Positions 8,258-64,000 of a stretch of 64,000 bases of DNA are shown in pieces. This stretch comes from an uncultured bacterium. Lineage in GTDB: Bacteria > Patescibacteriota > Minisyncoccia > Phycocordibacterales > Phycocordibacteraceae. A program made the position numbers and the translations under genes. Each line of letters starts with the position of its first letter. Position 1 is the first letter of the stretch. The stretch covers positions 5,461 to 69,460 of the forward strand of contig CALFMK010000001.1 in the NCBI GenBank assembly GCA_937879955.1, in the 5' to 3' direction. A model generated the notes under the pieces. That model saw only the letters and a program-made list of their open reading frames with translations, did not search any database and was not told where the DNA came from.

Positions 8258-8284
8258 ATTCTTCTAGAGGACGGCGATAATAAA

Positions 8285-8500
8285 CTATATATAACGTTTA
8301 ATTATCTCAACACTGCCCAAGGTCAGTATGTCTCTACCGACCACTCCGTTCTTACGGGTACTAATTACTTTAATAGCTTCTCGTTCGAGAAAGTACATTA
8401 CCGCAGTGTTCAGAATTAAATTCCTATCCCTCTCCTCTGTAACTAGTAAATCAATCGTTTCAAGGACATCCTCTGGAATATCAAGATTAATTTTAGACAC
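8285..8500 (-). CDS. ribbon-helix-helix (CopG-like) small DNA-binding protein
   Basis: KINLDIPEDVLETIDLLVTEERDRNLILNTAVMYFLERE follows the RHH strand-helix-helix pattern. GTG start, no obvious SD, 23 nt after the upstream ORF. Low GC. Confidence 0.55.
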   Translation of the reverse strand: MSKINLDIPEDVLETIDLLVTEERDRNLILNTAVMYFLEREAIKVISTRKNGVVGRDILTLGSVEIIKRYI

Positions 8501-8523
8501 TGTAAATTCTAAAAATTAAAGCT

Positions 8524-9003
8524 CTAGCTGAACTTCAGCATTTTCGTTTCTAAATTTTCCAGCAATATCTGATAACGCGCATCGAGAGGATTTAACTTGT
8601 AACGTATTTGACGTATAACGATTTTGTATAATTTCCCAACTTGCCCTCGCGTTTCTATACGAATACGGAAGGCTGCTGTCATTCCTGTTGGTATCTTGCA
8701 GTAAACTATCGTGCCTAGGGCAACTTGAGTTATGTTCTCTCCTCGGCATGAAATATCAGTTTTTAATATTGAACTCTGAGCCGTTCCTTCAATCTGATAT
8801 ACAAAACCGGTTGGCTTCTTGCCCGAGGCAACCGAAAGAGGAACGTATAGATCTTTCCGAGGAGCAGTTATGTTAATGATAAATATAAAATTCCCGATTA
8901 CGCGGTCAGGTCCATTAGGAATTCGCGTTCTCCTAAGATTCTCTTCAGTGTCTTTAATATCGACCAAGACATCTTTCTCCGGTGGAATGATTGGTTTATC
9001 CAT
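8524..9003 (-). CDS. hypothetical protein (low-GC island)
   Basis: 159-aa ORF co-oriented with and immediately upstream of the RHH gene. I recognise no motif. Confidence 0.5.
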   Translation of the reverse strand: MDKPIIPPEKDVLVDIKDTEENLRRTRIPNGPDRVIGNFIFIINITAPRKDLYVPLSVASGKKPTGFVYQIEGTAQSSILKTDISCRGENITQVALGTIVYCKIPTGMTAAFRIRIETRGQVGKLYKIVIRQIRYKLNPLDARYQILLENLETKMLKFS

Positions 9004-9116
9004 ATAATCAGATAGCTCTTTGTATAAGATCAGTATGGGTTTAGGAATATGAAAAATATCTCAAAATTGCATAAAGTAATTATGGAGACAGTGGCAGAAA
9101 GCTGATCTAGTCACTT

Positions 9117-9148
9117 CGAAAAGAAGCACCGGACCACATGTCCGGTGC
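9117..9148 (-). terminator. intrinsic terminator (minus strand) after the 9182-9484 gene
   Basis: GCACCGGAC-ATGTG-GTCCGGTGC on the minus strand, followed by TTCTTTTCG. Confidence 0.6.
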
Positions 9149-9181
9149 TAACTAATATGAATCCTATAAGAAAGAGGCAAA

Positions 9182-9484
9182 TTACTTCTTACCCCAGCGC
9201 CATGATGGCTCTTCGCCAAAGCGTAGGCAGATCCGGTAGAGGGAATAGGAAAGAAGGGCGATAACGCCTGTGAACTCTAAGACTCCGAAAATGATGTCCC
9301 GGGCCCCTACATGGCTCTCGACCGCGGCACCGACCCATCCGAAGAATATAAGGAAGGCGAAGGTGAAGAGGAGGGCATAGAAGACCGTCACGGCCCATCC
9401 CTGCCATGAGACAGGGAACCAGCCCCACCCGAATTCCTTCGCCCGGAACCACAGCTTCCGGGCCTTCCTTTTGTGTTCGCTCAT
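9182..9484 (-). CDS. small integral membrane protein
   Basis: 100 aa with two or three hydrophobic helices (WAVTVFYALLFTFAFLIFFGWVGAAV, IIFGVLEFTGVIALLSYSLY). Confidence 0.6.
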   Translation of the reverse strand: MSEHKRKARKLWFRAKEFGWGWFPVSWQGWAVTVFYALLFTFAFLIFFGWVGAAVESHVGARDIIFGVLEFTGVIALLSYSLYRICLRFGEEPSWRWGKK

Positions 9485-9643
9485 GGGCTTATAATACTGT
9501 AAATAGGCCGTTTTATCCAGGCTTGACTCCTAAAAATGAGGGTCTCCTGAACATGAAGAATTGGCTTTCCACGTCTTGACAGTGGTTGTCAACCCTGCTA
9601 CTATGGGCCTTGTCAGGCCGTCCGCAAGGGCGGTCTTTCATTT

Positions 9644-10258
9644 ATGCCAGTTATTGCAGTAGTAGCCCTTATGGGCTTCCTGTTTTTACCGGGTAGCGCA
9701 GGAGCGCCGGCACAAGCGGAGACGATTTCCGCGCCGGTCGCGATAGCGGGGGCGGCTGAAGAGCCTTCCAAACGCCTGGCCACCTCGAAAGAGGCGGCCC
9801 GGACCTACCAGGTAAGTATGACCGCTTACAATGCCGTTCCCGGCCAGACGGATGCCAACCCATTCGTCACCGCGAGCGGCATGGCCTCGAATCACGAGGT
9901 TGTGGCTGCGCGATCGCGCGATATGGCGGCTGAACTCCCGTTCGGCACCGTCATACGCTTCGAGCGCTCGACGAAGGACACGCCTTCGTGCCGTTTCGGC
10001 GAAGTCGAGCACTTGATGGGGTACCGCATCATCGCGGACACCATGCATGAGCGCTGGAGCCACAAGGTGGACGTGCTCTTCGACCAGACCGATACGGTCA
10101 TGGTCGAGGGACGCATCGTCAACCCGGCGCTCGCCCTCGGTATCTGCGACGACGTGACGATCACGGTCGTGGGAACTGTCGATATGACGGATCCGCCGAC
10201 CACGCAGGCCGAGCTCGCGGCGATGTTCGCCACGCCGACCTACGCGATAGCGAAATAA
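9644..10258 (+). CDS. secreted 3D-domain (RlpA/MltA-like double-psi beta-barrel) cell-wall protein
   Basis: Signal peptide, then YQVSMTAYNAVPGQTDANPFVTASG, the hallmark of 3D-domain proteins. TTGACA-N17-TACTAT promoter at about 9583-9611. Confidence 0.75.
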   Translation: MPVIAVVALMGFLFLPGSAGAPAQAETISAPVAIAGAAEEPSKRLATSKEAARTYQVSMTAYNAVPGQTDANPFVTASGMASNHEVVAARSRDMAAELPFGTVIRFERSTKDTPSCRFGEVEHLMGYRIIADTMHERWSHKVDVLFDQTDTVMVEGRIVNPALALGICDDVTITVVGTVDMTDPPTTQAELAAMFATPTYAIAK

Positions 10259-10330
10259 ATGAATCTCCTTCATGAAGAGTCCTGCTCGTAAGAGCCGGGC
10301 TCTTCTTACGTTTGGTATACTGAACCCAGT

Positions 10331-11578
10331 ATGAACATCACCCCGAAGATCCTCGTCGCAGCCGCGCTCATGGCGACGTTCGCGGTCGCAGGCGCTATGC
10401 CCGCTACCGCGCTCGCGGCAAGTAGCAGGTCCTCCTCAAAATCCTCGATAGAGATATCGGGATGGATCCCGTACTGGAGGACGGAGCTCGGCACGAAGGA
10501 CGCGAAGGCGCACATCTCGCAGATGGCAGAGGTGAACCCGTTCGGCTACACGGTGACGAGTACCGGGAATCTGAACGACGCCATGAAGATCGGCGGCGCC
10601 GACTGGCAGAGCCTCATCGCAGCCGCGAAGAAGAAGGGCGTGAAGGTCATCCCGACGGTCATGTGGAGCGATACGGCGTCCATCTATAGCGTCCTCTCGA
10701 ACCCGGTCACGCGCGCGTCGCACGTGAAGGCTATCGCGAAGGCCGTTAAGGACAACGGCTTCGACGGCATCGACATCGACTACGAAGGCAAGACCGCGGA
10801 GACCCGCGTCTACTTCTCTGCGTTCCTCGCCGAGCTCAAGGCCGAGCTCGGCCGCAGCAAGCAGCTCGACTGCACCATCGAGGCCCGCATGCCGCTCGAG
10901 GCGCGCTTCTCGGGAACTCCTCCGGCGAACATCGAGTACGCGAACGACCTCCCGGAGATCAACAAGAGCTGCGATCGCGTGCGCATCATGACCTACGACC
11001 AGCAGACCGCAGACCTGCAGCTGAACGCATCGGCACGCCGCGCAGGCGAGATCTATGCGCCTGTGGCGGACGTGAAGTGGGTGGAGAAGGTCGTTGAGTA
11101 CATGGGCAAGGATATCGACAAGAAGAAGATGGTCCTCGGCGTCCCGACGTACGGCTATATCTACCAGATCATGCCGAACTCGGATGGCAGCGGCTACGGC
11201 TACACGAAGCTCGAGGCCTTCAATCCGGCGTACGCGACGCAGCTCGCGAAGGAGCTCGGCATCACGCCGGAGCGCAACCGCGCGGGCGAGATGTCCTTCA
11301 GCTACGTGCCGAAGGACCAGCCGGCCTCGCTCCCGACGCAGAGCGCGCTCTCGCGGCTCGCGCCGCGGAGCACCTCGTCGGCGAGCCTCGCTGCCGCAGG
11401 TGCCCTCGCGCTTGCGAAGAGCAAGAAGCAGCAGGCCCCGTTCGAGTACATCACCTGGAGCGACGCGGGCGCGATCAAGCAGAAGGTGGACCTCGCGAAG
11501 AAGATGAAGCTCGCGGGCGTGGCGGTCTTCAAGATCGACGGAGGATCCGACCCGAAGATGTGGGACGTGCTGAAGTAG
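10331..11578 (+). CDS. secreted glycoside hydrolase family 18 protein
   Basis: Signal peptide and the GH18 catalytic motif FDGIDIDYEG. TATACT lies 9 nt upstream of the ATG. Confidence 0.85.
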   Translation: MNITPKILVAAALMATFAVAGAMPATALAASSRSSSKSSIEISGWIPYWRTELGTKDAKAHISQMAEVNPFGYTVTSTGNLNDAMKIGGADWQSLIAAAKKKGVKVIPTVMWSDTASIYSVLSNPVTRASHVKAIAKAVKDNGFDGIDIDYEGKTAETRVYFSAFLAELKAELGRSKQLDCTIEARMPLEARFSGTPPANIEYANDLPEINKSCDRVRIMTYDQQTADLQLNASARRAGEIYAPVADVKWVEKVVEYMGKDIDKKKMVLGVPTYGYIYQIMPNSDGSGYGYTKLEAFNPAYATQLAKELGITPERNRAGEMSFSYVPKDQPASLPTQSALSRLAPRSTSSASLAAAGALALAKSKKQQAPFEYITWSDAGAIKQKVDLAKKMKLAGVAVFKIDGGSDPKMWDVLK

Positions 11579-12897: not shown

Positions 12898-14979
12898 CTA
12901 TGCGCGCTCGATAGTAGCGAGAATCTCCTCGATCTCAGCGAGCCCCGCCGGCTTCGTGAGATGGTGGTCGAACCCGGCCTTCCGGGCCTTCTGTATGTCG
13001 GATTCCTGGCCGTAGCCGGTGAGTGCGACGAGCGTCGCGGCGAACCCATCAGCGCGGAGCGCCGTCGCGACCTCGTAGCCCTCCATGTCCGGCAGGCCGA
13101 TGTCGAGCAGGATCACGTCAGGACGGAACGCGGGCGCGCGGGCGATAGCCTCCTCGCCGGTATATGCGGTTTCGGTACGGTTCCCGCGGAGCGTGAGGAG
13201 CTTCGCGAGCGCGTCGGCCGCGGCGCGGTTGTCGTCCACGACGAGGATGCGGAACCCGTCACGCGCCTTTGGCGCTGCTACGGCCCGTGCCCGCACCCCG
13301 ACGGCTCCCTCCTGCGGGAGCGGGATGCGGACGGTGAACCGGCTCCCGTGTCCGGGCCCGTCGCTCTCGGCCTCGATCGTGCCGTCGTGCATCTCCACCA
13401 GGTTCTTGGTAAGCGAGAGGCCGATGCCGAGACCTGCGTGCATCTTGCCGGGCTGCTCGATCTGGAAGAACGGTTCGAAGACGTGCGCAAGGAGCGCGGC
13501 GTCCATGCCGATGCCGGTGTCCGTCACCGTGACGACGGCCTCGGTCCCGTCCGTGCGTGCCACGAGCTCGATACGGCCTCCGGGCTCGGTGTACTTCGCC
13601 GCGTTGTTGAGGAGGTTCACGAACACCTGCTCGAGACGCACGGGATCGGCCTCGAGGCGGATCGCCTCGTCCGGCATGTCGATCGAGAGCTCGTGCTTGA
13701 GGGACGCCATGAGCGGCGCCACGGTACGCTGGCTCCTTGCGAGCACGGTCTGGAGGTCGATGTGCTCCTTCTGGAGGGAGAGCTTCTCGCGGGTGATGCG
13801 CGAGATGTCGAGCAGGTCGTCGAGGAGATGCCGCATGGTCTTCAGGTGGTCGGTCATGCCTTCGGCGAGCTCGCTCGAGCGAGCGGCATCCGGCCGCTCG
13901 AGCTTCATGATCTCGAGCGAGGACATGAGCGGGGCGAGCGGGTTGCGCAGCTCGTGCGCGAGGGTGGCGATGAAGCGGCTCTTCGCCTCGTCCTCACGGC
14001 GGATCCGCTCCACGGCGTCCTCGAGCCTGCGCACGTTGTCGCGCAGGACGTTCGCGGTGTCCTTGCGCTCCTCCGCGATGGAGACGAGCACGAGGAATAT
14101 GAGGGAGAGCACGATCACGAATATCTCGGTCTGCAGGAGGTCGTATCCGAGCGTCCCTGTACCGGACGCGAGGCTGAGGAACGCGGTGCCGCCGAGCGCG
14201 AGCGCGGCGTTCAGGAAGAGCGCGAGCGTCATGAAGCGCGGGCCGATGCGCAGCGCGATCCAGAGGAACGGGATGAGGATAAGGTATACGAGCGGCACCT
14301 GCGCGATCTCGCGGTATGGGGTCCAGTACAGGAGGAGGCCGGTCCCGACGACGGCCGCTATCGCGACCCAGGCCTCGACGAGCTCGCCCTTCGTGCGCTG
14401 GAACCTGAAGCGCGGCAGCCACTTGATGAGGAGCGGCGTCACGACGAGCATGGAGAGGATGTGCCCGATCCACCACGGGATGAAGGTACCCATGAGGCCG
14501 CGGGGCATGGCGCGCTCGGCCAGGGTGAAGGTGAGGGTTCCGAGCGCCGGGATGAGGATGGTGACGAAGAGCGCGACGAACACGAACATGAGGGTGTCGG
14601 GAGCCTTCGAGAAGGTGTTGCGGTATCCGAGCTTCCGGAGGAGCCAGGTGCCCACGCTTGCCTGTATGGCGTTCGCCGCCGCAAGCCCGAGCGCCACGAA
14701 CAGCACGCTCCCGTTCAGGAGCTGGTGCGCGAGAGCTGCCAGGAATACCGCAGGCCAGAGCGCGATGCCGCCGAGGAGGAGTCCGCCGAGCGCGATGCCG
14801 GATGCCGGCCAGATGAGGGCCGGGGCGGTCGGGACGGAGGAATAGATATGCGAGAAGACCTGGGCGCAGAACAGGTACGCGCAGAACAGCAGCGCCATGT
14901 AGAGGAGCGACCGTCCGGAATAGGGGAAGCGAGGCATAGACGGGTGGATGGCGTTCTCCCTAGGATACATTCTTTTCAT
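12898..14979 (-). CDS. hybrid sensor histidine kinase (multi-TM MASE1-like sensor, HisKA, HATPase, C-terminal receiver)
   Basis: About 300 aa of TM helices. H-box LAHELRNPLAPL. ATP-lid boxes NLLNNAAKYT, DTGIGM and GLGIGL. Receiver ILVVDDN..ILLDIGLPDMEG..LTKP. Start could be an internal Met (14970 or 14937). Confidence 0.85.
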   Translation of the reverse strand: MKRMYPRENAIHPSMPRFPYSGRSLLYMALLFCAYLFCAQVFSHIYSSVPTAPALIWPASGIALGGLLLGGIALWPAVFLAALAHQLLNGSVLFVALGLAAANAIQASVGTWLLRKLGYRNTFSKAPDTLMFVFVALFVTILIPALGTLTFTLAERAMPRGLMGTFIPWWIGHILSMLVVTPLLIKWLPRFRFQRTKGELVEAWVAIAAVVGTGLLLYWTPYREIAQVPLVYLILIPFLWIALRIGPRFMTLALFLNAALALGGTAFLSLASGTGTLGYDLLQTEIFVIVLSLIFLVLVSIAEERKDTANVLRDNVRRLEDAVERIRREDEAKSRFIATLAHELRNPLAPLMSSLEIMKLERPDAARSSELAEGMTDHLKTMRHLLDDLLDISRITREKLSLQKEHIDLQTVLARSQRTVAPLMASLKHELSIDMPDEAIRLEADPVRLEQVFVNLLNNAAKYTEPGGRIELVARTDGTEAVVTVTDTGIGMDAALLAHVFEPFFQIEQPGKMHAGLGIGLSLTKNLVEMHDGTIEAESDGPGHGSRFTVRIPLPQEGAVGVRARAVAAPKARDGFRILVVDDNRAAADALAKLLTLRGNRTETAYTGEEAIARAPAFRPDVILLDIGLPDMEGYEVATALRADGFAATLVALTGYGQESDIQKARKAGFDHHLTKPAGLAEIEEILATIERA

Positions 14980-22897: not shown

Positions 22898-22986
22898 GGG
22901 TGGCATTGTAGCAGGCCCCGGACGCGTCCAGCCACAGATTCCATCGGTTTTGCGCACCTCGCCTCACCCGCGGTATGATGGCGCCA

Positions 22987-23997
22987 ATGTCCCTCTTCTC
23001 ACCGCGCATCGGCATCGACCTCGGCACTACCAATGTCCTCGTGTTCGTGCCTGGGAAGGGCGTGGTCCTGAACGAGCCGTCGGTCGTGGCGGTCTCCACC
23101 GAGACGAACAAGGTGGTCGCCATCGGGGTGGAGGCCAAGGCGATGGTAGGCCGCACCCCGGACTCCATCCAGGCGTACCGCCCGATGAAGGATGGCGTCA
23201 TCGCGGACTATCGCGTGACCGAGGCGATGCTCCGCTATTTCATAAAGAAGGCACTCGGCCGGAACCTCTTCAAGCCCACCGTCCTCATCTCCGTGCCTGC
23301 GGGCGTTTCCTCCACCGAGAAGCGCGCCGTGATCGAGGCTGCCGTGAAGGCGGGCGCGGCAGACGCGTACGTCGTGAAGGAGCCGATCCTCGCCGCGATC
23401 GGTGCCGGAATCCCGATCCAGGAACCGATGGGGCGCATGGTGGCTGACATCGGCGGCGGCACCATCGACGTGGCCGTGATCTCGCTCGGCGGCATCGTGG
23501 CGTCCACCTCCGTGAAGGTGGCAGGGAACAAGCTCGACCGCGCGATCATCGACCATGTGAAGAAGCAGTACAACCTCTCCATCGGCGACAAGTCGGCCGA
23601 GGACATCAAGATCCAGATCGGCTCGGCCGTCCCGGTCACCGAGGAGCTCACGATGTCGGTGAAGGGACGCGACCTCCTCTCGGGCCTCCCGCGCACCATC
23701 GAGCTCAAGACCAACGAGGTGGTGCAGGCACTGAACCGCGAGCTGCGCGACATGATGAACGCGGTGCGCAAGGTGCTGCAGGACACGCCGCCTGAGCTCG
23801 CAAGCGACATCATCGACAACGGCATCATCCTTACGGGCGGCACGAGCCAGCTCCGCCATCTCCCCGAGCTCGTGTATAGGCGCACCGGCGTGCAGGCGAA
23901 GCTCGCCGACGACGCCTACTACTGCGTCGTGCGCGGCACGGGCATCGCGCTCAAGCATCTCGATACCTATAAGAAGAGCATCATCTCGAAGCGGTAA
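22987..23997 (+). CDS. mreB: rod-shape-determining protein MreB (copy 1)
   Basis: IGIDLGTTNVLV, actin-fold phosphate and adenosine motifs (DIGGGTIDVAV, ILTGGTSQL). Start set to the ATG at 22987, 7 nt after TATGAT. In-frame ATGs also lie at 22975 and 22978. Confidence 0.9.
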   Translation: MSLFSPRIGIDLGTTNVLVFVPGKGVVLNEPSVVAVSTETNKVVAIGVEAKAMVGRTPDSIQAYRPMKDGVIADYRVTEAMLRYFIKKALGRNLFKPTVLISVPAGVSSTEKRAVIEAAVKAGAADAYVVKEPILAAIGAGIPIQEPMGRMVADIGGGTIDVAVISLGGIVASTSVKVAGNKLDRAIIDHVKKQYNLSIGDKSAEDIKIQIGSAVPVTEELTMSVKGRDLLSGLPRTIELKTNEVVQALNRELRDMMNAVRKVLQDTPPELASDIIDNGIILTGGTSQLRHLPELVYRRTGVQAKLADDAYYCVVRGTGIALKHLDTYKKSIISKR

Positions 23998-29933: not shown

Positions 29934-30995
29934 ATGGCAAAAGGAAACCGCTTCTCGAAGAGCTCGCTCTTCTCCACCGACATCGGCATCGACCTCGGCA
30001 CCGGCAATACGCTCGTGTACGTGCGCGGCCGCGGCATCGTGATATCGGAGCCGTCGGTGGTGACGCTCAACGAGAAGACCGGCCAGATGGTGGCGGTCGG
30101 GAAGGAGGCGAAGGCCATGCTCGGCAAGACGCCGCCGCACATCCGCGCGGTGCGTCCCTTGTCGCACGGCGTCATCTCCGACTTCGAGGTGACGGAGGAG
30201 CTGCTCGCGTATTTCATAAACAAGGCGCAGGGCGGACGCTCCAGGCTCTTCGGGCCAAGAGTGGTGGTGGGCGTGCCGACCGGCGTGACGAACGTCGAGT
30301 CGAGAGCGGTGCGCGACGCGGCGATGACGGCGGGCGCGCGCGAGGTGTTCATCCTCGAGGAGCCGATGGCGGGCGCGATCGGCGCGAAGCTCCCGGTCAT
30401 GGAGGCGGTGGGCACCATGGTGCTCGACATCGGCGCAGGCACTACCGACATCGCGGTCATCGCGCTCGGCGGATCGGTAGCAGGGAAGAGCTCGCAGGTC
30501 GCGGGCGACCGGTTCAACGAGAACATCATCGATTTCGTGCGCAGCGAGTTCCAGCTCGCCATCGGCGAGAAGACCGCCGAGGACACCAAGATCGCCATCG
30601 GCGCGGTGCTCCCGCTCGCGACGCCGCTCGAGAAGGCGATCCGCGGACGCGACCTCGCCACCGGCCTCCCGCGCGAGATCACCCTCAACGACTCACACAT
30701 GCGCGACGCGCTCGCGCCGTCCATGGAAGCGCTCATGGAGGCGATGAAAGAGGTCATCGAGAAGACGCCGCCCGAGCTCCTCTCGGACGTGCTCGAGCGC
30801 GGCGTCACCGTGTTCGGCGGCGGCGCCTTGCTCCGCGGCCTGCCTGAGCTCCTCGCGAAGATGCTCGGCGTGCCGGTGCACGTGGCCTCTGATCCTCTCA
30901 CGGCCGTGGTGCGTGGCACCGGCGTCGTGACGGAGGACCCGCGCCCGTGGAATGACGCATTCATGCATGAAGAAGCGATTCTCCCGAAGGCATAA
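29934..30995 (+). CDS. mreB: rod-shape-determining protein MreB (copy 2)
   Basis: IGIDLGTGNTLV, DIGAGTTDIAV and VFGGGALLRGL. Starts 4 nt after the proS stop and is followed by mreC, mreD and mrdA. Confidence 0.9.
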   Translation: MAKGNRFSKSSLFSTDIGIDLGTGNTLVYVRGRGIVISEPSVVTLNEKTGQMVAVGKEAKAMLGKTPPHIRAVRPLSHGVISDFEVTEELLAYFINKAQGGRSRLFGPRVVVGVPTGVTNVESRAVRDAAMTAGAREVFILEEPMAGAIGAKLPVMEAVGTMVLDIGAGTTDIAVIALGGSVAGKSSQVAGDRFNENIIDFVRSEFQLAIGEKTAEDTKIAIGAVLPLATPLEKAIRGRDLATGLPREITLNDSHMRDALAPSMEALMEAMKEVIEKTPPELLSDVLERGVTVFGGGALLRGLPELLAKMLGVPVHVASDPLTAVVRGTGVVTEDPRPWNDAFMHEEAILPKA

Positions 30996-40858: not shown

Positions 40859-41686
40859 TCAGCGGTATTCCCGGATCCAGCATCCCATGCCGAGGATCTG
40901 CCGGTAGGTGCCGATCCTCGTCCTCCGGATGGAGAGCGCCATGCCTCGGGTGCCGAGCGCGCGGCCGATGCGCTCGGCAAGCGAGCGCATGTAGGTTCCT
41001 GACGCGCAGGTCACGCGGAGCCGCATGCTAGCGAAGCTGCGATCAGCCATGTCGTCGAACGTGTCCTTCCATGCGGCGCGTATCTCGTCCTGCCTGAAGT
41101 CCCGTCCGAGCGCTTTCGACTCATCGTCGGTGCGTGGTGCCAGATCGAGCATCGCCATGACGCGCTTCTCGAGGTCCTTCGCATCGATCTTCAGGATGTC
41201 GAGATCCGCTATGCGATAGATGGTCTCGGTGTGCGTCGGCATATCGACGGCATCGAGCGTGCCCTCGAGCGCGTGCAGGAAGAGCGGCCTGCCGCCTACG
41301 GTCTTCGACGAGTAGGGCGGGTACGGGATATCCTTCGCGCCCGTTTCCGCCTTGAGCGCCTTCCGGACCGTCCTGCCATCGGGATGGGACGCAGTTCCTG
41401 CGTAGGACGGCATGCCGAGCACGTCCCCCGTGTCAGTCGCCAGATCGAGCAGGACCTCAACCTCGTATTCCTTGTCGAGCCCGAGATATGCCTCCTTGCG
41501 CTTGCACTCGTCGCCGAGCAGCACGAGGAGCGCTCCTTCGGCCATCGGATCGAGCCTGCCGGCGTAGGTGGCCGGGAGGTGCGCGTATCGGGGATTTTCC
41601 CGCTTCCAGTCCTGAAGCGCTTGGAGCGGCGTCTGGCCGATTTTCTTATGGAGTACGATCGGGCCGGTCGGCTGGATGCTCTGCAT
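40859..41686 (-). CDS. truB: tRNA pseudouridine(55) synthase
   Basis: HKKIGQTPLQAL and catalytic YAGRLDPMAEGALLVLLG. Start trimmed to MQSIQPTG at 41686. Confidence 0.88.
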   Translation of the reverse strand: MQSIQPTGPIVLHKKIGQTPLQALQDWKRENPRYAHLPATYAGRLDPMAEGALLVLLGDECKRKEAYLGLDKEYEVEVLLDLATDTGDVLGMPSYAGTASHPDGRTVRKALKAETGAKDIPYPPYSSKTVGGRPLFLHALEGTLDAVDMPTHTETIYRIADLDILKIDAKDLEKRVMAMLDLAPRTDDESKALGRDFRQDEIRAAWKDTFDDMADRSFASMRLRVTCASGTYMRSLAERIGRALGTRGMALSIRRTRIGTYRQILGMGCWIREYR

Positions 41687-41758
41687 GGTGGGTTGATGAT
41701 ACCGGCAACAGCCAGGAAAAGAAAAAGGCCCCGACATGATGTCGGGGCCAATGCTGCC

Positions 41759-42766
41759 TCATATAGGGGCGGAAAGTGCGTAGTCTCCGGTCCTCGTGGT
41801 GCGAAGCGCGCTGAGGCCGTGGCTGTGATAGAGCGCCCTCCATTCGGCATACTCCGCCGCGCTCAGTCCCGGATACTTTGCCAGGACGTAGGGAAGCGGG
41901 ATGCCGCCCTTCTCGACGAGCAGGACGATCACCGCCTTGCGGCGTATGACCCATCGCGTGTCCTGCGCTTCGGACGGGAGGTCCTCGGCGCAGATCTTCA
42001 TTCCCAGGGGGCCCGTGATCGTCTTCTTCGGGTCGAAGCAGACCGTCGGGTTCGCGCTCGGATCGAGCCTGAGCTCGCCGAAGTAGTAGCCGCGGCCCCA
42101 GACGGTCCTGAGCGGAGGGTTACCCGGGAAGAACGCCCCGAGAGCCTTCCGCATCCTGCACGCATGCACGTCGATTATCTTCGGATCGACATGCGTGCCT
42201 TCCTCGTGCCTCGCATCCAGCAGCATCTGCCGCGTATGGATGATCCCGGACTTCGAGATGAGGGTCGTGAGCAGGCGGGCCTCGTCAGGGGTGATGCGCG
42301 CGCGCTGGCCCCCGATGAAGACCTCGTCGAGCCCGTTGATGACGATCGGAACGCCTTCGTGCACGGACTCGAGCTTGGTCGCGACGGATTGCAGCTCGGC
42401 TCCGTCTTCAAGCGCGAGCATGTAGCCCCTCCTGGGATGCGTGCTGATGACCTGCCTTGCGGCGGGGTGGCACGCGGCGAGCCGCATGCGGATATGGTGG
42501 ATATGGGTGTCGATCACCTTATCGAGCGGAGGATGCTCCTTGTTGCCGTCGATGACGCGCTTGAGGCTCGCCTTCGACTGCAGATGGCCACGCCGATCCA
42601 TCATGTAGAGGAAGAGCTTCTGCTCCGAAGGCGTGAACTTGGCGGAGATCTCGTTTACTGAGACCTGGCCGCTCGAGGCGATCTTGAACACCAGCTCTCC
42701 GTACGTAAGCTGGATAGGGTCTCGCTGGGGAGCCGCGTGGGTTCCCGTACGTTCGACGACGCTCAT
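41759..42766 (-). CDS. receiverless regulator with two tandem OmpR/PhoB-type winged-helix domains and a C-terminal DUF1153-like HTH
   Basis: Domain 1: FTPSEQKLFLYMMDRRGHLQSKASLKRVI...VIDTHIHHIRMRL...ISTHPRRGYML. Domain 2: ITPDEARLLTTLISKSGIIHTRQMLLDA...IIDVHACRMRKAL...LRTVWGRGYYF. Tail: RWVIRRKAVIVLLVEKGGIPLPYVLAKYPGLSAAEYAEWRALYHSHGLSALRTTR. Start set to the ATG at 42766 with an AGGAG SD; the track start is 42820. Confidence 0.75.
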   Translation of the reverse strand: MSVVERTGTHAAPQRDPIQLTYGELVFKIASSGQVSVNEISAKFTPSEQKLFLYMMDRRGHLQSKASLKRVIDGNKEHPPLDKVIDTHIHHIRMRLAACHPAARQVISTHPRRGYMLALEDGAELQSVATKLESVHEGVPIVINGLDEVFIGGQRARITPDEARLLTTLISKSGIIHTRQMLLDARHEEGTHVDPKIIDVHACRMRKALGAFFPGNPPLRTVWGRGYYFGELRLDPSANPTVCFDPKKTITGPLGMKICAEDLPSEAQDTRWVIRRKAVIVLLVEKGGIPLPYVLAKYPGLSAAEYAEWRALYHSHGLSALRTTRTGDYALSAPI

Positions 42767-42854
42767 GTACTTGCTCCTAGATACCTTGGTTTCAACGAAT
42801 CCAGAGCCAGTAAATGACAAGAAGGAGGCCGTGTCAATAAATAGGACAATGGAA

Positions 42855-42883
42855 AGAGCCGCCCTTCATGGAAGGGCGGCTCT
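42855..42883 (-). terminator. 13-bp hairpin after the CtrA-like copy 1 gene
   Basis: AGAGCCGCCCTTC-ATG-GAAGGGCGGCTCT. Confidence 0.55.
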
Positions 42884-42912
42884 GCTTGAAGCACGCACTG
42901 CTGATACTGCTC

Positions 42913-43683
42913 TCAGGCCATCGGCGCCGGACTCGGGGCGCCGGAGCCGTTCGTGAAGGCCGGTCTCGCGGCCTCGGCGATCGGAAGATCTTCTGCCATC
43001 ACGCGCTCGTTCGGGTCGCGCAGCACGTAGCCGCGGCCCCAGACGGTCTCGATGTGGTGCCTGCCGCTGTTACCGGAAGCGAGCTTCCTGCGCAGCTTGC
43101 AGACGAACACGTCCACGATCTTGAGTTCCGGCTCGTCCATGCCGCCGTACAGGTGGTTCAGGAACATCTCCTTGGTGAGGGTGGTGCCCTTGCGCAAGGA
43201 GAGGAGCTCCAGTATCTGGTACTCCTTGCCGGTCAGGTGCACGTGCTTCCCGCCGATCTCGACGGTCTTCGCGTCGAGGTTCACGACGATCTCGCCGGTC
43301 TTGATGACCGACTGGGCATGACCCCGCGAGCGCCGCACGATCGCGTGGATGCGCGCGATCATCTCGTCCTTGTGGAACGGCTTGGTCATGTAGTCGTCGG
43401 CGCCGCCCGCGAAGGTCTTCACCTTCATGTCGATCTCGGCGGATCGCGCCAGGATCATGATCGGCGTGTTGACCTTCGCGACCCTGATGGTGCGAAGCAC
43501 GTCGATCGCTGACATGTCGAGCAGGTCGAGACTGAGTACGATCATGTCGTAGTCATATATCTTTGCCAGATCGACGCCCTCCTCGCCCAGGTCGGTCACG
43601 TAGACGTTGAAGCCTTCCGACTTCAGCATCAGCTCGATCGTCTGGGCGGTAGCGCTGTCGTCTTCGATCAGGAGAATACGCAC
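42913..43683 (-). CDS. CtrA-like response regulator paralog with degenerate receiver (Ser at the phospho-acceptor position) and a C-terminal Pro/Ala-rich extension
   Basis: GTG start with a [47 protein letters not shown]... The expected [11 protein letters not shown] reads [12 protein letters not shown], and the conserved T/S reads A ([10 protein letters not shown]). The output domain [52 protein letters not shown]...[11 protein letters not shown] is near-identical to copy 2. Confidence 0.85.
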
Positions 43684-43736
43684 GCTTAGCTCTCCTCTGT
43701 GTCTGTTTGATTATCGGGAACGCATGTCTGGGATTG

Positions 43737-43764
43737 ATGATAGTGATTATCCGGGCATTGTCAA
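43737..43764 (-). promoter_or_regulatory. sigma70-type promoter of CtrA-like copy 1 (TTGACA-N16-TATCAT)
   Basis: -35 at 43764-43759 and -10 at 43742-43737 on the minus strand. Paralogous in sequence to the promoter at 44597-44624. Confidence 0.6.
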
Positions 43765-43800
43765 AAGTAGCGAATGCTCCTGTCCCTCAGGTAAGAAATT

Positions 43801-43826
43801 GGCCGCCCTTCGTGAGAAGGACGGCC
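43801..43826 (-). terminator. hairpin after the canonical ctrA-like gene
   Basis: GGCCGTCCTTC-TCAC-GAAGGGCGGCC on the minus strand, followed by AATTTCTT. Confidence 0.5.
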
Positions 43827-43851
43827 AGGTATCTTCGGATGGGTGATGCTA

Positions 43852-44547
43852 CTACGCCGCGGATACCATCTCGTTCTCGTCGCGCAGCACGTAGCCGCGG
43901 CCCCAGACGGTATCGATGTGATGCTTGCCGCCGTTGCCCGAGCCGAGCTTCTTGCGAAGCTTGCAGATAAAGACGTCCACGATCTTGATCTCGGGAACAT
44001 CGATGCCGCCGTACAGGTGATTCAAGAACATCTCCTTGGAAAGGGCGGTGCCCTTGCGTAGCGACAGGAGCTCGAGCATCTGGTACTCCTTGCCGGTCAG
44101 GTGCACGCGCGTGCCGCCGACCTCGACGGTCTTCATGTCGAGGTTCACGACGATCTCGCCGGTCTTGATGACCGAATGAACGAGACCCTTCGAGCGCCGT
44201 ACGATCGCATAGATGCGAGCCACGAGCTCGTCCTTATGGAACGGCTTGGTCATGTAGTCGTCGGCGCCGAGGTTCAGCGCCTTCACCTTCGTCTCGATGC
44301 GGGTGTCGCCGGTCGAGATCATGACGAGCGTCTCGATCTTCTCGGCGCGGAGCGTCCGGAGAACGTCGAGGCCGTACATGTCAGGCAGGTTAAGGTCGAG
44401 CAGGATCAGGTCGTAGTCGTAGGACCTCGCGAGATCGAGACCCTCCTCGCCCAGGTCGGTCGTCTGGACGCTGAAACCTTCCGACATCAGCATCAGCTCC
44501 ACCGTTTGGGCAGTGGCGCCGTCATCTTCGATCTGGAGAACGCGCAT
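43852..44547 (-). CDS. ctrA: CtrA-type OmpR-family response regulator (canonical receiver)
   Basis: [67 protein letters not shown]...[28 protein letters not shown]...[32 protein letters not shown]...[11 protein letters not shown], ending in ..SAA. It reads along its whole length like alphaproteobacterial CtrA as I remember it. Track ORF trimmed to the ATG at 44547 with an AGGAGG SD. Confidence 0.85.
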
Positions 44548-44596
44548 TATGAAATCCTCCTGTTTCCGTTGTCTGGATGGAACGTGTCTGATTTTG

Positions 44597-44624
44597 ATAC
44601 TACGACTACTCCATGGATTGTCAA
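44597..44624 (-). promoter_or_regulatory. sigma70-type promoter of the canonical ctrA-like gene (TTGACA-N16-TAGTAT)
   Basis: -35 at 44624-44619 and -10 at 44602-44597 on the minus strand. Confidence 0.6.
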
Positions 44625-44647
44625 ACGAGCGCACGTGAGGAATAGGG

Positions 44648-44673
44648 AAAGGCGGCCATGCGTGGCCGCCTTT
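44648..44673 (-). terminator. hairpin terminator after the 44675-44974 ORF
   Basis: AAAGGCGGCC-ACGCAT-GGCCGCCTTT. Confidence 0.6.
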
Positions 44674-44674
44674 G

Positions 44675-44974
44675 CTAGGGAGGTGGGAAGAGCGGCAGCT
44701 GTCGTGCATCCTGCGCCGCTCGCGCTTCGGCGCGCTCACGCTTCTTGCTGTTTCTCGAACGCGTCGCGCCCGCTTTCTTGCCGTACCGCTGACGGAGTCT
44801 CGCGACGAGGCCTTCGGGCGTATCGGCATCGGGCCAGCAGGTGCTGTTCAGGAACTCGTTCGCCTTTTGTACGAGCTCCTTATTCGTGAATCGGTTAAGG
44901 TCCTTCGGGCCGTGCCGCCTCCGGAAGCGCAGGTTCCGCTCGAATGCGTCGAGACGCTCTTCAGGGGACAGCAT
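44675..44974 (-). CDS. hypothetical basic small protein ending in QLPLFPPP
   Basis: 99 aa with GC-rich third positions. Overlaps the upstream ORF by 14 nt. A terminator follows directly. Confidence 0.5.
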
Positions 44975-45176
44975 GCCGTCTCCTTTTCGGGGCGCGTATG
45001 ATGCCGCGATTCCGGAGTTCGGCGAGGACTTCCGCCACGCGTCTCCTTATATCGGGAGCATGGCGGATATTCTTCCCTTCGATTGCCTTGATCGCCGCGA
45101 GCGGCCACCCGACGCTCTTGTCGGAACGCTGCTTCACGCGGATAGTCGCCTCGGTAAGCTCTGCAATGCTTAACAT
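44961..45176 (-). CDS. hypothetical small protein
   Basis: 71 aa. TTGACA-N18-TATAGT promoter and GAGAGGTG SD upstream. Confidence 0.5.
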   Translation of the reverse strand: MLSIAELTEATIRVKQRSDKSVGWPLAAIKAIEGKNIRHAPDIRRRVAEVLAELRNRGIIRAPKRRRHAVP

Positions 45177-45250
45177 CTGACACCTCTCAAAGATCCAGAT
45201 ATCGTGCTGGAAAAACTATACCGAACGGAGAAAGGGCATGTCAAACCTCT

Positions 45251-45706
45251 CTAGGAAAGGAGGGAATCGATCACCGCCTTCACGGCAGCGCCGTCCGCGC
45301 GTCCCTTAATCTCCTGCATGACGGCGCCCGTGAACTTGCCGGCGTCCTTCTTCTCGGAGATCCCGAGCTCTGCCATCTTCGCCTTCACCACGGCCTCGAT
45401 CTCCTCGGTGCTCATCTGCGCAGGGAGGAACGACTCGATCACGGCGAGCTCCTCCTTCTCGGGCGCGGCGAGCTCGTCACGCCCTGCGGCCGTGAACTGC
45501 TCGATGGAGTCCTTGCGCTGGTTCGCTGCGCGCTTCACAACCGCGAGCGCCTCATCGTCCGTGAGGAACTCGTCAGGCTTGCGCTTCTTCGCGACGACCT
45601 CGTTGGTCATCATGGTAGCGAGCGAACGGAGGGTGCGGAGGCGGATTTCGTCCTTTGCGCGCAGCGCATCAGGGATGCCGGCCTTTATGGTCTGATGTAG
45701 GGTCAT
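45251..45706 (-). CDS. yqeY: GatB/YqeY domain protein
   Basis: LRAKDEIRLRTLRSL...AANQRKDSIEQFTAAGRDELAAPEKEELAVIESFLP...MSTEEIEAVVKA is the typical YqeY pattern. Confidence 0.85.
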   Translation of the reverse strand: MTLHQTIKAGIPDALRAKDEIRLRTLRSLATMMTNEVVAKKRKPDEFLTDDEALAVVKRAANQRKDSIEQFTAAGRDELAAPEKEELAVIESFLPAQMSTEEIEAVVKAKMAELGISEKKDAGKFTGAVMQEIKGRADGAAVKAVIDSLLS

Positions 45707-61886: not shown

Positions 61887-62006
61887 ATGGCACGCCGAGC
61901 AAAGAAACATTCCAAGGGACCGGGGCTCGAGGTCTACGCGTTCTGGACCGGGTTCGCGAGCACTATCATCAGCCTCCTGCACGTGCTCATCGTGGCGAGC
62001 AAGTAG
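61887..62006 (+). CDS. possible 39-aa tail-anchored small protein
   Basis: MARRAKKHSKGPGLEVYAFWTGFASTIISLLHVLIVASK. Shares the (L/V)YAF.TG..ST.ISL...(L/V)I.A.K pattern with the previous ORF. Confidence 0.35.
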   Translation: MARRAKKHSKGPGLEVYAFWTGFASTIISLLHVLIVASK

Positions 62007-62010
62007 CGCC

Positions 62011-62130
62011 ATGGCAGAGAATAAGCCTGCACCATCGTTCCGTGACCCGAAGCGCGGCATGAGCGCGTTCTCGAGCAAGGGCGTGAAGAAGCCTGTACGC
62101 GCGTCGTATTTCGGAAAGAAGGCGCGATAG
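62011..62130 (+). CDS. possible 39-aa basic small protein
   Basis: MAENKPAPSFRDPKRGMSAFSSKGVKKPVRASYFGKKAR. Followed 8 nt later by a strong terminator. Confidence 0.3.
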   Translation: MAENKPAPSFRDPKRGMSAFSSKGVKKPVRASYFGKKAR

Positions 62131-62138
62131 GGAAGGGA

Positions 62139-62166
62139 AAAGCCGGAGTAGGGATGCTCCGGCTTT
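62139..62166 (+). terminator. intrinsic terminator closing the LOG / tiny-ORF transcription unit
   Basis: AAAGCCGGAG-TAGGGATG-CTCCGGCTTT followed by T. Confidence 0.65.
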
Positions 62167-62182
62167 TACGTAGGTGGATGCG

Positions 62183-62368
62183 TCATCGGGTGCGGCCGCT
62201 GTAGGTGAGCACGCCGGCGATTATGATCGCGACGGTGACAGTCCGTCCGGCGATCTGTACGACAGGGTCCGGATGGAGATTCGCCGCGAGCGAGCAGAGC
62301 AGCATCACGAGAGCGACGGTGTACAGAATGATCGAGATACCCCTACTTTCAGGACTATGACGCGACAT
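62183..62368 (-). CDS. small membrane protein, hypothetical
   Basis: 61 aa with two hydrophobic helices (ISIILYTVALVMLLCSLAA, VTVAIIIAGVLTY). Confidence 0.4.
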   Translation of the reverse strand: MSRHSPESRGISIILYTVALVMLLCSLAANLHPDPVVQIAGRTVTVAIIIAGVLTYSGRTR

Positions 62369-62554
62369 GGCACGGACCTTTCCTAAAGAGCGATACCGAG
62401 CTCTTCCGCTAGTATGCGCTCCGCCGGGGATTTGTTAAGCAGAAAGGCACTCGACTTTATCTTTTCTTTATCTCTCGTACATACACTGAGCCGGGTAGTT
62501 CTTTCATCCTGCAAGGTCGCCCGTAGCGACTGCGCATGAATACCCGCATAGGGG

Positions 62555-62586
62555 AGAGCGAACCGTCCGTCAGGGCGGTTCGCTCT
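62555..62586 (+). terminator. 13-bp hairpin in the 62.4-62.6 kb ORF-free region
   Basis: AGAGCGAACCGTC-CGTCAG-GGCGGTTCGCTCT followed by TT. Confidence 0.45.
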
Positions 62587-62648
62587 TTAGTGGTGTAATA
62601 TTTTAGCCCTAAACACGGTACGCGCACGGTGCTATAGTCGAGGTATCT

Positions 62649-63014
62649 ATGCCTTGGCCACGAGTGGGGGACTGGTTGGAGAGGATCAGTAAATCGAACG
62701 CGCTCTATCCGCTCCTCATAGCGCTATGCCTCTCCGTCGCGTTCGCCGGTACGGTCATAGCATTCGTACCGAACGTTCTCATCCAGGTCATCGTCTGTAT
62801 ACCAGTGCTGATGATCGTATTCCAGATCGTCCGGAGCTTCGAGTACTTCTCCAAGAACAACCCGGACATGCTCCGGACCGAGACGCATGTGATCCAGCAG
62901 CGCGTCCTCGAGATGATGGGGGACGAGTCCGGCGTCGTGCACGCGACTGCGGCCGACCTGGTAGCCATAACGAATCCTGCGAATACCCAGGATAGAATCG
63001 AAAACCATGGCTAA
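62649..63014 (+). CDS. membrane protein, hypothetical
   Basis: 121 aa with two TM helices (LYPLLIALCLSVAFAGTVIAFV, IQVIVCIPVLMIVFQIV). TATAGT box upstream. Confidence 0.5.
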   Translation: MPWPRVGDWLERISKSNALYPLLIALCLSVAFAGTVIAFVPNVLIQVIVCIPVLMIVFQIVRSFEYFSKNNPDMLRTETHVIQQRVLEMMGDESGVVHATAADLVAITNPANTQDRIENHG

Positions 63015-63294
63015 CATCTATCTTATCGCCGTAAAGAATGATGATTCCTTCAATGTTAAGGAATTCCATAAATTTGTTAAGGAAAAACTCTATCCTGAGC
63101 ATGTGGGCGGTTGGTGGCATTACGTTTCTGGACCAACCTATCTCGTTAAGTCGGAAACACTTGATGCTAAGGGAATATCCGAAATCATCACCCAGTTCAC
63201 TGGCAAGCAGAGTCATCTTGTTACCAAGATCGATCTAGAAGATATCGAAGGAATGTTGCCGGCTCGCGCATGGGACTGGCTCGGACTCTACTAA
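63007..63294 (+). CDS. hypothetical protein (low-GC island)
   Basis: 95 aa. Overlaps the previous gene by 8 nt. AT-rich codon usage. Confidence 0.5.
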   Translation: MANIYLIAVKNDDSFNVKEFHKFVKEKLYPEHVGGWWHYVSGPTYLVKSETLDAKGISEIITQFTGKQSHLVTKIDLEDIEGMLPARAWDWLGLY

Positions 63295-63512
63295 TGGAGC
63301 ACATCACACTTCAAGAGTATGAAGATACTGATGGAACGAGGATGGAGCTCGGTATCCAGTATGACGAAGCTACCTACCAGTTCATCGTTTCCGGAACGCC
63401 AATTAATGGCAATGGGGCGTATGAGGCAGGGAAGACGCCCATTTTCGCATCCTTCCCGACCCTCGAAGAAGCAAGGATGTTCGTAGAAAAGAGTTTCACT
63501 AAGATCTCCTAG
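63294..63512 (+). CDS. hypothetical protein (low-GC island)
   Basis: TAATG stop/start overlap with the previous gene. MEHITLQEYEDTDG... (72 aa). The track start at 63270 is in the same frame. Confidence 0.45.
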   Translation: MEHITLQEYEDTDGTRMELGIQYDEATYQFIVSGTPINGNGAYEAGKTPIFASFPTLEEARMFVEKSFTKIS

Positions 63513-63571
63513 GAATCTTCGGTTTATTTTTTCTCCAGGATTCCTTTATCCGGGGCTGGTAGGGTTCGGAT

Positions 63572-64000
63572 ATGGCAATGGTAGAAGAAAATCTGATACT
63601 TTCCCTCTTGAAGAAAGAGTTTCCGAAGGCGCCCGAACAGGTATTGAGACAATGGCTTGCTCCAGCTGTTAAGAAGGACGGTTGGCCACCGACCGGACTT
63701 CATTGGATCGGTGTATTGGGGAAAAGGGATCTGGATTTCTGGAAAAAGAAGGAATGGTCCCTTAAGGACGTTAACCTCGAAGAAGCTTCCTGGGATTACG
63801 ATACTAGGTACGCGGCAGAAAAGGTGCTCGAAGGGTTTGTTGCATCTCAAGAATCTGAAGTCCTCTTCTCTGATTCTCATGAGAAGCAGAAGGTCATACG
63901 AGCACTTAAGCACCTTTCAGTCGAAGGAAGCTTCTTCGAGCCGATAACCGCATTTCTCGTAGAAAACGAATCTGGTGGCTACTCGCTCGTAGACGGATTC
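63572..64000 (+). CDS. hypothetical protein, N-terminal fragment (runs off window end); possibly ParB/Srx-like
   Basis: Open frame from the ATG at 63572 to the window end (143 codons), so it is absent from the track. It ends ...GGYSLVDGF, reminiscent of the ..LIDG(H/F)HR motif of ParB-like nuclease domains, but the motif is cut by the window edge. Confidence 0.4.
   Translation, partial: MAMVEENLILSLLKKEFPKAPEQVLRQWLAPAVKKDGWPPTGLHWIGVLGKRDLDFWKKKEWSLKDVNLEEASWDYDTRYAAEKVLEGFVASQESEVLFSDSHEKQKVIRALKHLSVEGSFFEPITAFLVENESGGYSLVDGF

Follow-up and report, generated by a model that had tools for sequence, protein, structure and literature searches.

A Caulobacter-type CtrA and SciP gene block between yqeY and truB in Paceibacteria

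The response regulator CtrA of Caulobacter carries a C-terminal Ala-Ala that is its degradation signal, and ClpXP recognizes such C-termini both on CtrA and on ssrA-tagged proteins. The OmpR/PhoB family also includes atypical regulators that work independently of phosphorylation, such as HP1043 of Helicobacter, ChxR of Chlamydia and GlnR of the actinomycetes. In Caulobacter, SciP inhibits CtrA-activated late-S promoters, and residues T168 and T170 of CtrA tune which class of promoter it uses (PMC6847485). A homolog of GcrA, which regulates the cell cycle, occurs in phiCbK-like phages, and analogs of CcrM in phages of Sinorhizobium (PMC9437464). Here we analyze a 64-kb stretch of DNA from an uncultured bacterium (assembly GCA_937879955.1, contig CALFMK010000001.1, positions 5,461 to 69,460; hereafter the window), in which five open reading frames (ORFs), all on the minus strand, lie between yqeY and truB. 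Two of them, CtrA1 and CtrA2, are CtrA-like regulators, a third fuses two winged helix-turn-helix (wHTH) domains to a SciP domain, and the remaining two, ORFa and ORFb, are small. An earlier reading, made from the letters of the window alone (the sequence-only reading), had described them as a block of five regulators forming a candidate imported module. The ORFs and their coordinates were verified (Table 1), and three of the five encode regulators; in ORFa and ORFb no domain was recognized. With moderate confidence, we interpret the block as a Caulobacterales-type CtrA-SciP circuit that was captured by an ancestral member of one clade of Paceibacteria and has been retained, and sometimes exchanged, at the yqeY-truB site.

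By family models and phylogeny, CtrA1 and CtrA2 are true members of the CtrA clade. Against the CtrA equivalog model NCBIfam NF045991, for which the curated cut-off is 350 bits, CtrA1 scores 360.8 bits and CtrA2 379.9 bits, while the next-best family gives about 157 bits or less. Amino acid identity to CtrA of C. vibrioides is 77.1% for CtrA1 and 85.7% for CtrA2, the latter with 82.3% identity between the genes at the nucleotide level. The CtrA proteins of Brevundimonas and Caulobacter share 87%, and the mean for the Alphaproteobacteria is 74.4 +/- 11.1% (PMC9437464). When CtrA2 was searched against 5.8 billion proteins, its top matches were all CtrA of Caulobacter or Caulobacteraceae. A bootstrapped neighbor-joining (NJ) tree places both proteins on the Caulobacteraceae side of a split with 85% support, inside the alphaproteobacterial CtrA clade and with Caulobacter or Caulobacteraceae proteins as nearest neighbors, in line with the CtrA-like label given to them in the sequence-only reading.

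Both copies have the domain order and the near-identical recognition helix of CtrA from Caulobacter vibrioides/crescentus; in contrast to it, they lie in tandem and in a different phylum, the Patescibacteria, and no CckA, ChpT or CtrA boxes were found in the DNA scanned. CtrA1 retains the acidic pocket D8/D9, the phospho-acceptor D51, the switch residue T79 (a Ser in Caulobacter) and K101, its C-terminus is still AA (the protein ends SAA), and it differs by T168A and T170S in a DNA-binding domain whose recognition helix is conserved. CtrA2 retains T168 and T170 in a DNA-binding domain that is near-identical to that of Caulobacter, recognition helix included, but its receiver carries D51S, N53D, P55L and S79A, with K101 retained. 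This receiver aligns with that of Brucella CtrA (PDB 4QPJ), and helix alpha1 is nearly unchanged. At the C-terminus, CtrA2 has a 25-residue tail that ends in PMA instead of AA; the tail is identical in L083, an independently assembled locus described below. These scores and residues agree with the earlier description of a canonical CtrA-like regulator and a second copy with a degenerate receiver.

The third protein had been described as receiverless with two winged helices, and both features are present; what had been overlooked is a C-terminal SciP domain (DUF1153). In order, the protein contains wHTH1 (residues ~18-117), a CtrA-type wHTH2 (~130-229) and SciP/DUF1153 (~250-325). The C-terminal domain scores 63.7 bits against Pfam DUF1153, where the threshold is 23.5, and it matches the solved DUF1153 structure PDB 2JRT with an E value of 2.4e-6. 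An AlphaFold2 model, computed from an alignment of 15 family members, has three separate domains and a mean pLDDT (predicted local distance difference test) of 81, and in a fold search the top PDB matches were all OmpR/PhoB-type DNA-binding domains, with template modeling (TM) scores of 0.75-0.84. When a profile built from the fusion family was applied, its wHTH2 part gave 93-108 bits for the DNA-binding domains of true CtrA but 36 for the window's generic OmpR regulator, and we therefore consider wHTH2 to be derived from CtrA. The last ~85 residues correspond to SciP (DUF1153/PF06627; NF051866) and keep its RWVxRRKA and GLxALRTTR motifs. Whereas SciP is a free protein of ~90 amino acids, here it is fused behind two winged helices, and the family has a YPDLS signature of its own.

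We define this family as proteins that have one or two winged helices of the OmpR type ahead of DUF1153, lack a receiver and can be aligned with one another over their full length. A word-based search returned weak CtrA matches only, as if the fusion were unique; this was overturned by an exhaustive HMMER search, which found 72 clusters of the family at E<1e-10. They include at least 13 full-length wHTH-wHTH-SciP proteins, 24-32% identical, and many proteins with a single wHTH and SciP; one member carries the NCBI label Patescibacteria. The members recognized by the hidden Markov model of the family are confined to module-bearing loci. A search of genome contigs with the fusion gave no match, neither a phage database nor IMG/VR contained a relative of the fusion or a close relative of CtrA2, and a metagenome scan based on a three-sequence alignment recovered no family members, because the loci it returned resembled either the CtrA-type winged helix or the SciP portion alone. 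The wHTH-wHTH-SciP proteins apparently constitute a divergent, undescribed family. Nine of the 20 members that we fetched (from P0375-P0409) end in AA or LAA, as do most CtrA copies of the candidate phyla radiation (CPR), including L085_RR; this C-terminus, which resembles the signal that ClpXP recognizes, is missing from CtrA2 and the fusion of the window.

Proteins that join CtrA to SciP, and adjacent sciP-ctrA genes, are also found in metagenomes (P0002-P0008; L155, L160). They share the combination of a CtrA-type winged helix with SciP, but the fusions have a full or partial receiver, a single winged helix and often an N-terminal SciP, whereas the window protein lacks a receiver, has a second winged helix and carries SciP at its C-terminus. 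In L155 (83-919) and L160 (7968-9062), two loci that resemble just the CtrA-type and SciP parts and presumably come from Alphaproteobacteria, the two genes share a strand, with sciP 4-70 nt upstream of ctrA. Judged by gene order, such adjacency could be the origin of SciP-CtrA fusions, and the receiver-containing fusions together with the adjacent gene pairs are plausible intermediates.

The genome that carries the block is not alphaproteobacterial. The best matches of the window's DnaB among GTDB species genomes are 92-93% identical and belong to metagenome-assembled genomes of Patescibacteria, and all 80 of its best 80 genome matches are Patescibacteria/Paceibacteria (Minisyncoccia)/Kaiserbacteria. 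By this marker and by synteny the contig is from Patescibacteria (Paceibacteria/Kaiserbacteria-like) and lies outside the Alphaproteobacteria, in line with the impression that the surrounding genes had given in the sequence-only reading. Other genes consistent with this host are mreB (twice), mreC, genes for penicillin-binding proteins (PBPs), mraZ/mraW, murF, rpl9, recR, rmuC and a class I ribonucleotide reductase.

The end of the block next to truB is also present in closely related DNA from another sample. The independent assembly L083 (SRR14271336) is 97.2% identical to the window over positions 43044-40267 (~2.8 kb) and shares the CtrA2 tail, the fusion and the junction with truB; the junctions are alike in the independent assemblies L083, L084 and L087-L089. 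Between the window and L083, dN/dS is 0.24 for the fusion and 0.20 for truB, indicating purifying selection. At greater distances the module recurs at the yqeY-truB site in several lineages of Paceibacteria, at 46-63% GC. For example, the gene order in L087 is radC-yqeY-RR(D51N)-RR(D51)-fusion-truB-murF, where RR denotes a response regulator, and in L084 it is ATPase-yqeY-MFS-RR(D51N)-fusion-truB, with a major facilitator superfamily (MFS) transporter gene; in L085/L086 a long-tailed regulator adjoins a wHTH-SciP gene. Identity to Caulobacter CtrA is 87% for L084_RR, 85% for L087_RR2, 79% for L085_RR and 58% for L087_RR1. Between the window and L084/L087, the CtrA proteins are 74-84% identical, compared with 71-75% for YqeY, 62% for RadC, 57-58% for TruB, 54% for MurF and 25-30% for the fusions.

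We also compared the window with 80 related species loci (L001-L080), chosen as the best DnaB matches. The order dnaB-recR-rmuC-(ATPase)-(radC)-yqeY-[gap]-truB is kept among them, with a gap that can be as short as 21 bp or as long as 3.5 kb. In L014 alone the gap contains a CtrA-like gene; its product carries D51S, is 48-49% identical and, at 247.7 bits, fails the cut-off of NF045991, and a search with it found no close relatives. Comparison of synteny, which the sequence-only reading had proposed as a check, shows the same site occupied in L084 and L087 and the block absent from nearly all of the 80 related loci.

Base composition separates older from younger copies. The GC content at third codon positions (GC3) of the CtrA genes in L085 (0.51, in a locus of 46% GC) and L014 (0.43, in a locus of 48% GC) matches the local value, so these genes are taken to be old residents. 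In L084, by contrast, the regulator (0.82) and the fusion (0.70) stand apart from neighbors at 0.50-0.58 (6318-8165); because of this atypical GC3, the L084 block is probably a later arrival, from a GC-rich relative via exchange between conserved flanks. A recent single import was rejected once the L084, L085 and L087 loci showed the module. The earlier idea of an imported module needs one correction here, in that the module proves not to be private to one genome. Because the same set of genes occupies the same site in several related genomes, we regard it not as an accident but as an import that has been retained in working order.

Four of these regulators lack the phospho-acceptor: CtrA2 and L014_RR have D51S, and L084_RR and L087_RR1 have D51N. 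Like the atypical OmpR/PhoB regulators mentioned above, all four combine an intact DNA-binding domain with a receiver that lacks this Asp; unlike them, they are CtrA-derived and stand beside a phosphorylatable paralog, and three of the four have N53D. In those three, N53D accompanies the loss of Asp51 (now S or N), giving LSLDL or LNLDL in place of LDLNL (window 43500-43560; L084 6318-7013; L087 2528-3223). Going by this alignment, the Asp two residues downstream may mean that the acidic site has shifted, or it may reflect a common ancestral state. In the NJ tree, the pseudo-receiver proteins CtrA2 and L084_RR are grouped with 85% support.

Phage-borne cell-cycle regulators resemble the block in that a regulator copy is found in a genome other than the alphaproteobacterium's own. 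The carrier here differs in being cellular and from another phylum, with the genes on its chromosome, and a parasitic link to an alphaproteobacterial host is hypothetical in its case. One viral case came up in our searches: L090 (GCA_040384165.1, JAWVHB010000268.1), a 123-kb phage-like contig with genes for terminase, portal, single-stranded DNA-binding protein and a phage metallopeptidase, has at 9798-10969 a GcrA-like gene and, directly behind it, the gene for a CtrA-like regulator of 322 aa whose C-terminus is extended. In IMG/VR, CtrA-like genes with 51-77% identity are present on 10 further viral contigs.

If the block is a captured CtrA-SciP circuit, three parts would act on shared CtrA-type operators: an activator, a phosphorylation-independent paralog and an anti-activator. 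CtrA1 would be the activator, switchable by phosphorylation and subject to degradation, because Asp51, the switch residue, the Lys and the C-terminal Ala-Ala are all retained. CtrA2 is a tandem duplicate with its own promoter; its receiver is no longer phosphorylatable (D51S, S79A) and its degron is buried beneath the tail. Its residues make activity without phosphorylation most likely, and it would then most likely occupy the same sites as CtrA1, as a competitor, a heterodimer partner or a basal activator. In the fusion, two winged helices per chain would imitate the head-to-tail dimer of OmpR-family proteins on direct repeats, and the protein would most likely either counteract activation constitutively at CtrA sites or sequester CtrA1/CtrA2. 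Competition or hetero-oligomerization on a common operator, which the sequence-only reading had suggested, is plausible from the domains involved; given the SciP domain on the third protein, the expected logic would be built-in anti-activation and not plain competition. What the data show is homology, domain architecture, key residues, a host outside the Alphaproteobacteria, a gene set conserved at a single locus and purifying selection; we infer that DNA targets are shared, and likewise the sign of each effect, the input kinase and any connection with the cell cycle.

Several observations weigh against such a circuit. The CtrA box TTAA-N7-TTAA, for which a genome-wide scan had been proposed, was sought in the window and related loci: there are 0 sites in the 64-kb window at 0 or 1 mismatch (1.97-3.4 expected), none upstream of ctrA1 or ctrA2, and no enrichment in L083-L087 or L014. 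No CckA, ChpT, Hpt, DivK, CcrM or GcrA gene is present in the window, which is about 10% of the genome, so that absences from it are not decisive for the genome as a whole. The nearest sequenced relatives (L001, L002) lack the module and have unrelated ORFs in the gap, and since it is missing from them and from nearly all of the 80 loci, it is dispensable for the clade. The fusion reaches 61 bits against the SciP equivalog NCBIfam NF051866, under the cut-off of 100. Its wHTH1 and wHTH2 are just 22-32% identical to the CtrA DNA-binding domain, and with this divergence their DNA specificity may differ from that of CtrA. Finally, the finer nodes of the NJ tree are weak, with 31-50% support.

The main rival, and one with real weight, holds that the genes have been domesticated as ordinary local regulators with a changed DNA motif and no role in the cell cycle, acting on neighboring genes or on a few unrelated ones, so that their CtrA/SciP ancestry is history only. 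Missing CtrA boxes in the CPR DNA scanned, a module that most relatives can do without and the drift of the L014 copy to 48-49% identity would all follow, and in L014 and L084 a possible local target is at hand in the MFS transporter gene that adjoins the CtrA-like gene. Yet the window and L087 have the block without an MFS gene, and three co-evolving parts derived from CtrA and SciP stay together. Moreover, the recognition helix and nearly all of the DNA-binding domain of CtrA1, CtrA2, L084_RR, L085_RR and L087_RR2 are as in Caulobacter, and domains unchanged in this way argue for the same motif. We judge local re-use unlikely, though it is the alternative to be taken most seriously.

A second alternative, for which the missing boxes in the CPR DNA scanned also speak, is host-directed mimicry. 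Here the Paceibacteria would be episymbionts of Caulobacterales, and their CtrA look-alikes would read or override the CtrA program of the host; they could be decoys for host ChpT, ClpXP or SciP, or they could bind host CtrA boxes, either transferred into the host or acting on host DNA that is taken up. The identity of 79-87% to the CtrA of one family in four CPR lineages would fit, as would the stronger conservation of the CtrA copies than of the symbiont's housekeeping proteins, but CtrA evolves slowly everywhere, which makes high identity alone weak evidence. Even the pseudo-receiver has kept helix alpha1, the ChpT dock in 4QPJ, without change, CtrA2 has lost both phosphorylation and the C-terminal degron, and the fusions evolve fast (25-30% identity), as in an arms race. 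There is also a precedent in that phages of Alphaproteobacteria carry cell-cycle regulators (GcrA of phiCbK, PMC9437464; GcrA and CtrA on contig L090). Against this, the proteins have no evident signal peptide or known export route, their N-termini being ordinary receiver starts, and the genes bear normal CPR-type promoters. We know of no demonstration of protein transfer from CPR cells into the cytoplasm of a host. The clade has no known host association, and our literature search found no report linking Patescibacteria with Caulobacter. Host mimicry on these grounds is improbable, more so than local re-use.

Slightly less probable still is that a mobile element or phage carries the block from cell to cell, which would then not be a stable part of a CPR regulatory network. 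Among relatives the block occurs in patches, the stretch between yqeY and truB is a hotspot of variation, CtrA-like genes are present on viral contigs, and the regulator and fusion of L084 look foreign by GC3 (0.82 and 0.70, against 0.50-0.58 in their neighbors). However, the block and its immediate surroundings are free of repeats and of integrase, transposase and phage genes, no close phage homolog of CtrA2 or the fusion was found, and the site is the same chromosomal one in every lineage, which fits homologous exchange better than a self-mobile element. An assembly chimera or contamination, with a fragment of Caulobacter in a CPR contig, could account for the 82% DNA identity to Caulobacter ctrA and the GC-rich composition of both genomes, but it is refuted by the same junctions in L083, L084 and L087-L089, and with CPR genes in conserved synteny a few hundred bases away at most on either side, copies whose diagnostic sites set them apart from every Caulobacter CtrA, and a fusion without alphaproteobacterial counterpart, we consider it very improbable.

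In further support of the captured circuit that we favor, every unit of the block comes with a sigma-70-like promoter and a ribosome-binding site of its own; the signals around the genes are listed in Table 1. A promoter scan found five promoter-like sites, compared with 1.1 +/- 1.0 in shuffled sequence, and all five ORFs are preceded by an AGGAG-type Shine-Dalgarno sequence. The sequence-only reading had assigned each unit its own TTGACA-type promoter and Shine-Dalgarno sequence, and this is what we see, three of the promoters being recovered by the scan and the weaker one of the fusion gene by eye. It had also noted hairpins at the ends of the three upstream units; we find these and a further one behind the fusion gene, and two of the four pass the T-run rule of the scan. 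The regions upstream of ctrA1 (44548-44660) and ctrA2 (43684-43800) are homologous (TTTGACAAT...ATCAA..CAGACA), and this homology of promoter and leader indicates duplication in situ. CAGACA is repeated in each ctrA leader and is a candidate operator.

Table 1. Features of the block and its flanks. Positions are those of the window; nt, nucleotides; aa, amino acids; REC, receiver domain.
Feature	Position	Strand	Evidence and remarks
yqeY	45251..45706	-	Upstream flank of the insertion site; Pfam match; present in 59/80 related loci
Promoter-like site, ORFa	45215..45244	-	TTGACA, 18 nt spacer, TATAGT; 11/12 consensus matches; scan
ORFa, 71 aa, small basic	44961..45176	-	No Pfam/NCBIfam match; GC3 0.68
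ORFb, 99 aa, putative gene	44675..44974	-	AGGAG ribosome-binding site; GC3 0.75
Hairpin 3' of ORFb	44651..44670	-	GGCGGCCA-cgca-TGGCCGCC, then TTTCCCTATT; read from sequence; weak T run, unlisted by scan
Promoter-like site, ctrA1	44597..44624	-	TTGACA, 16 nt spacer, TAGTAT; scan
CtrA1, 231 aa	43852..44547	-	REC + OmpR-type wHTH (Trans_reg_C); canonical CtrA
Terminator-like hairpin 3' of ctrA1	43800..43827	-	12 pairs, 8/12 G-C; scan
Promoter-like site, ctrA2	43737..43764	-	TTGACA, 16 nt spacer, TATCAT; 11/12 matches; scan
CtrA2, 256 aa	42913..43683	-	GTG start; pseudo-receiver CtrA paralog; family models and alignment
Hairpin 3' of ctrA2	42855..42883	-	AGAGCCGCCCTTC-cat-GAAGGGCGGCTCT; read from sequence; kept in L083
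Promoter-like site, fusion gene	42809..42837	-	TTGACA, 17 nt spacer, TTTACT; weaker, by eye, below scan rule
wHTH-wHTH-SciP fusion, 335 aa	41759..42766	-	Receiverless; Trans_reg_C twice + DUF1153
Terminator-like hairpin 3' of fusion gene	41727..41749	-	10 pairs, then TTTTTCTTTT; scan
truB	40859..41737	-	Downstream flank, conserved; Pfam match
o135, 135 aa	40410..40817	+	No Pfam match; adjoins truB

The smaller genes at the two ends of the block differ in their distribution. ORFa, which overlaps ORFb by 14 nt, has weak homologs (38-43% identity) immediately behind yqeY in L015 and L019, loci without CtrA genes, and on this pattern it is probably a native CPR gene. ORFb has no Pfam/NCBIfam match and no homolog among the fetched loci. 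On the other side, the first ATG of truB (41737) falls within the terminator hairpin of the fusion gene, and the truB call in L083 is 275 aa with a start 51 nt further in; because of these two facts the real start of truB is probably 41686. Homologs of o135 are limited to L083 and L084, both of which bear the module, and are missing from L001-L080 (0/80); in L084 the homolog is placed between the fusion and truB. On this distribution, o135 could be an additional, fourth component of the module or an accessory gene.

No kinase or phosphotransferase is adjacent to the block, as had been noted; we found no kinase or Hpt gene within ~25 kb of it. The sole kinase of the window is a MASE1-HisKA-HATPase-REC hybrid (12898-14979, minus strand), ~28 kb from the block. 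Being a hybrid, it implies an Hpt partner, of which there is none in the window. We considered it as a possible CckA and rejected it, since it has no specific match and is of a generic MASE1 type. The other two-component gene is a generic OmpR-family regulator (325-999, minus strand), which was rejected as a third CtrA with 168.6 bits against the cut-off of 350.

Elsewhere in the window, in a genome of ~0.6 Mb, there are two full MreB paralogs (22975-23997 and 29934-30995) together with MreC and two PBP transpeptidases. Two islands have a low GC fraction, 5864-10000 (0.47) and 62000-64000 (0.515), compared with 0.62-0.66 elsewhere in the window. The first contains a 797-aa beta-helix/Big_7/peptidoglycan-binding protein (5864-8257) and a 159-aa orphan (8524-9003), and it may be foreign DNA or encode a surface or host-interaction function.

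The component families of the block, CtrA, SciP and atypical OmpR regulators, are known. According to the literature we searched, in which we found no report of CtrA in Patescibacteria/CPR, what is new is the presence and long retention of CtrA and SciP in the CPR, the pairing of a canonical with a pseudo-receiver copy, and the wHTH-wHTH-SciP family. CtrA is treated as a hallmark of the Alphaproteobacteria, and here it is found in the CPR, a different and strongly reduced phylum, at family-level identity to Caulobacter. If our interpretation holds, a master-regulator circuit can pass from one phylum into another and persist there. The proteins also provide natural variants for the study of CtrA, namely D51S/N together with N53D, the changes T168A/T170S, a degron that is masked, and a single chain that combines a double winged helix with SciP. 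Host-derived genes are among the few host markers available for CPR bacteria, and the block offers a testable clue to the hosts of these uncultured organisms. Should host mimicry be true, this would be the first cellular symbiont to mimic a cell-cycle regulator of its bacterial host, and the CtrA sequence would name that host.

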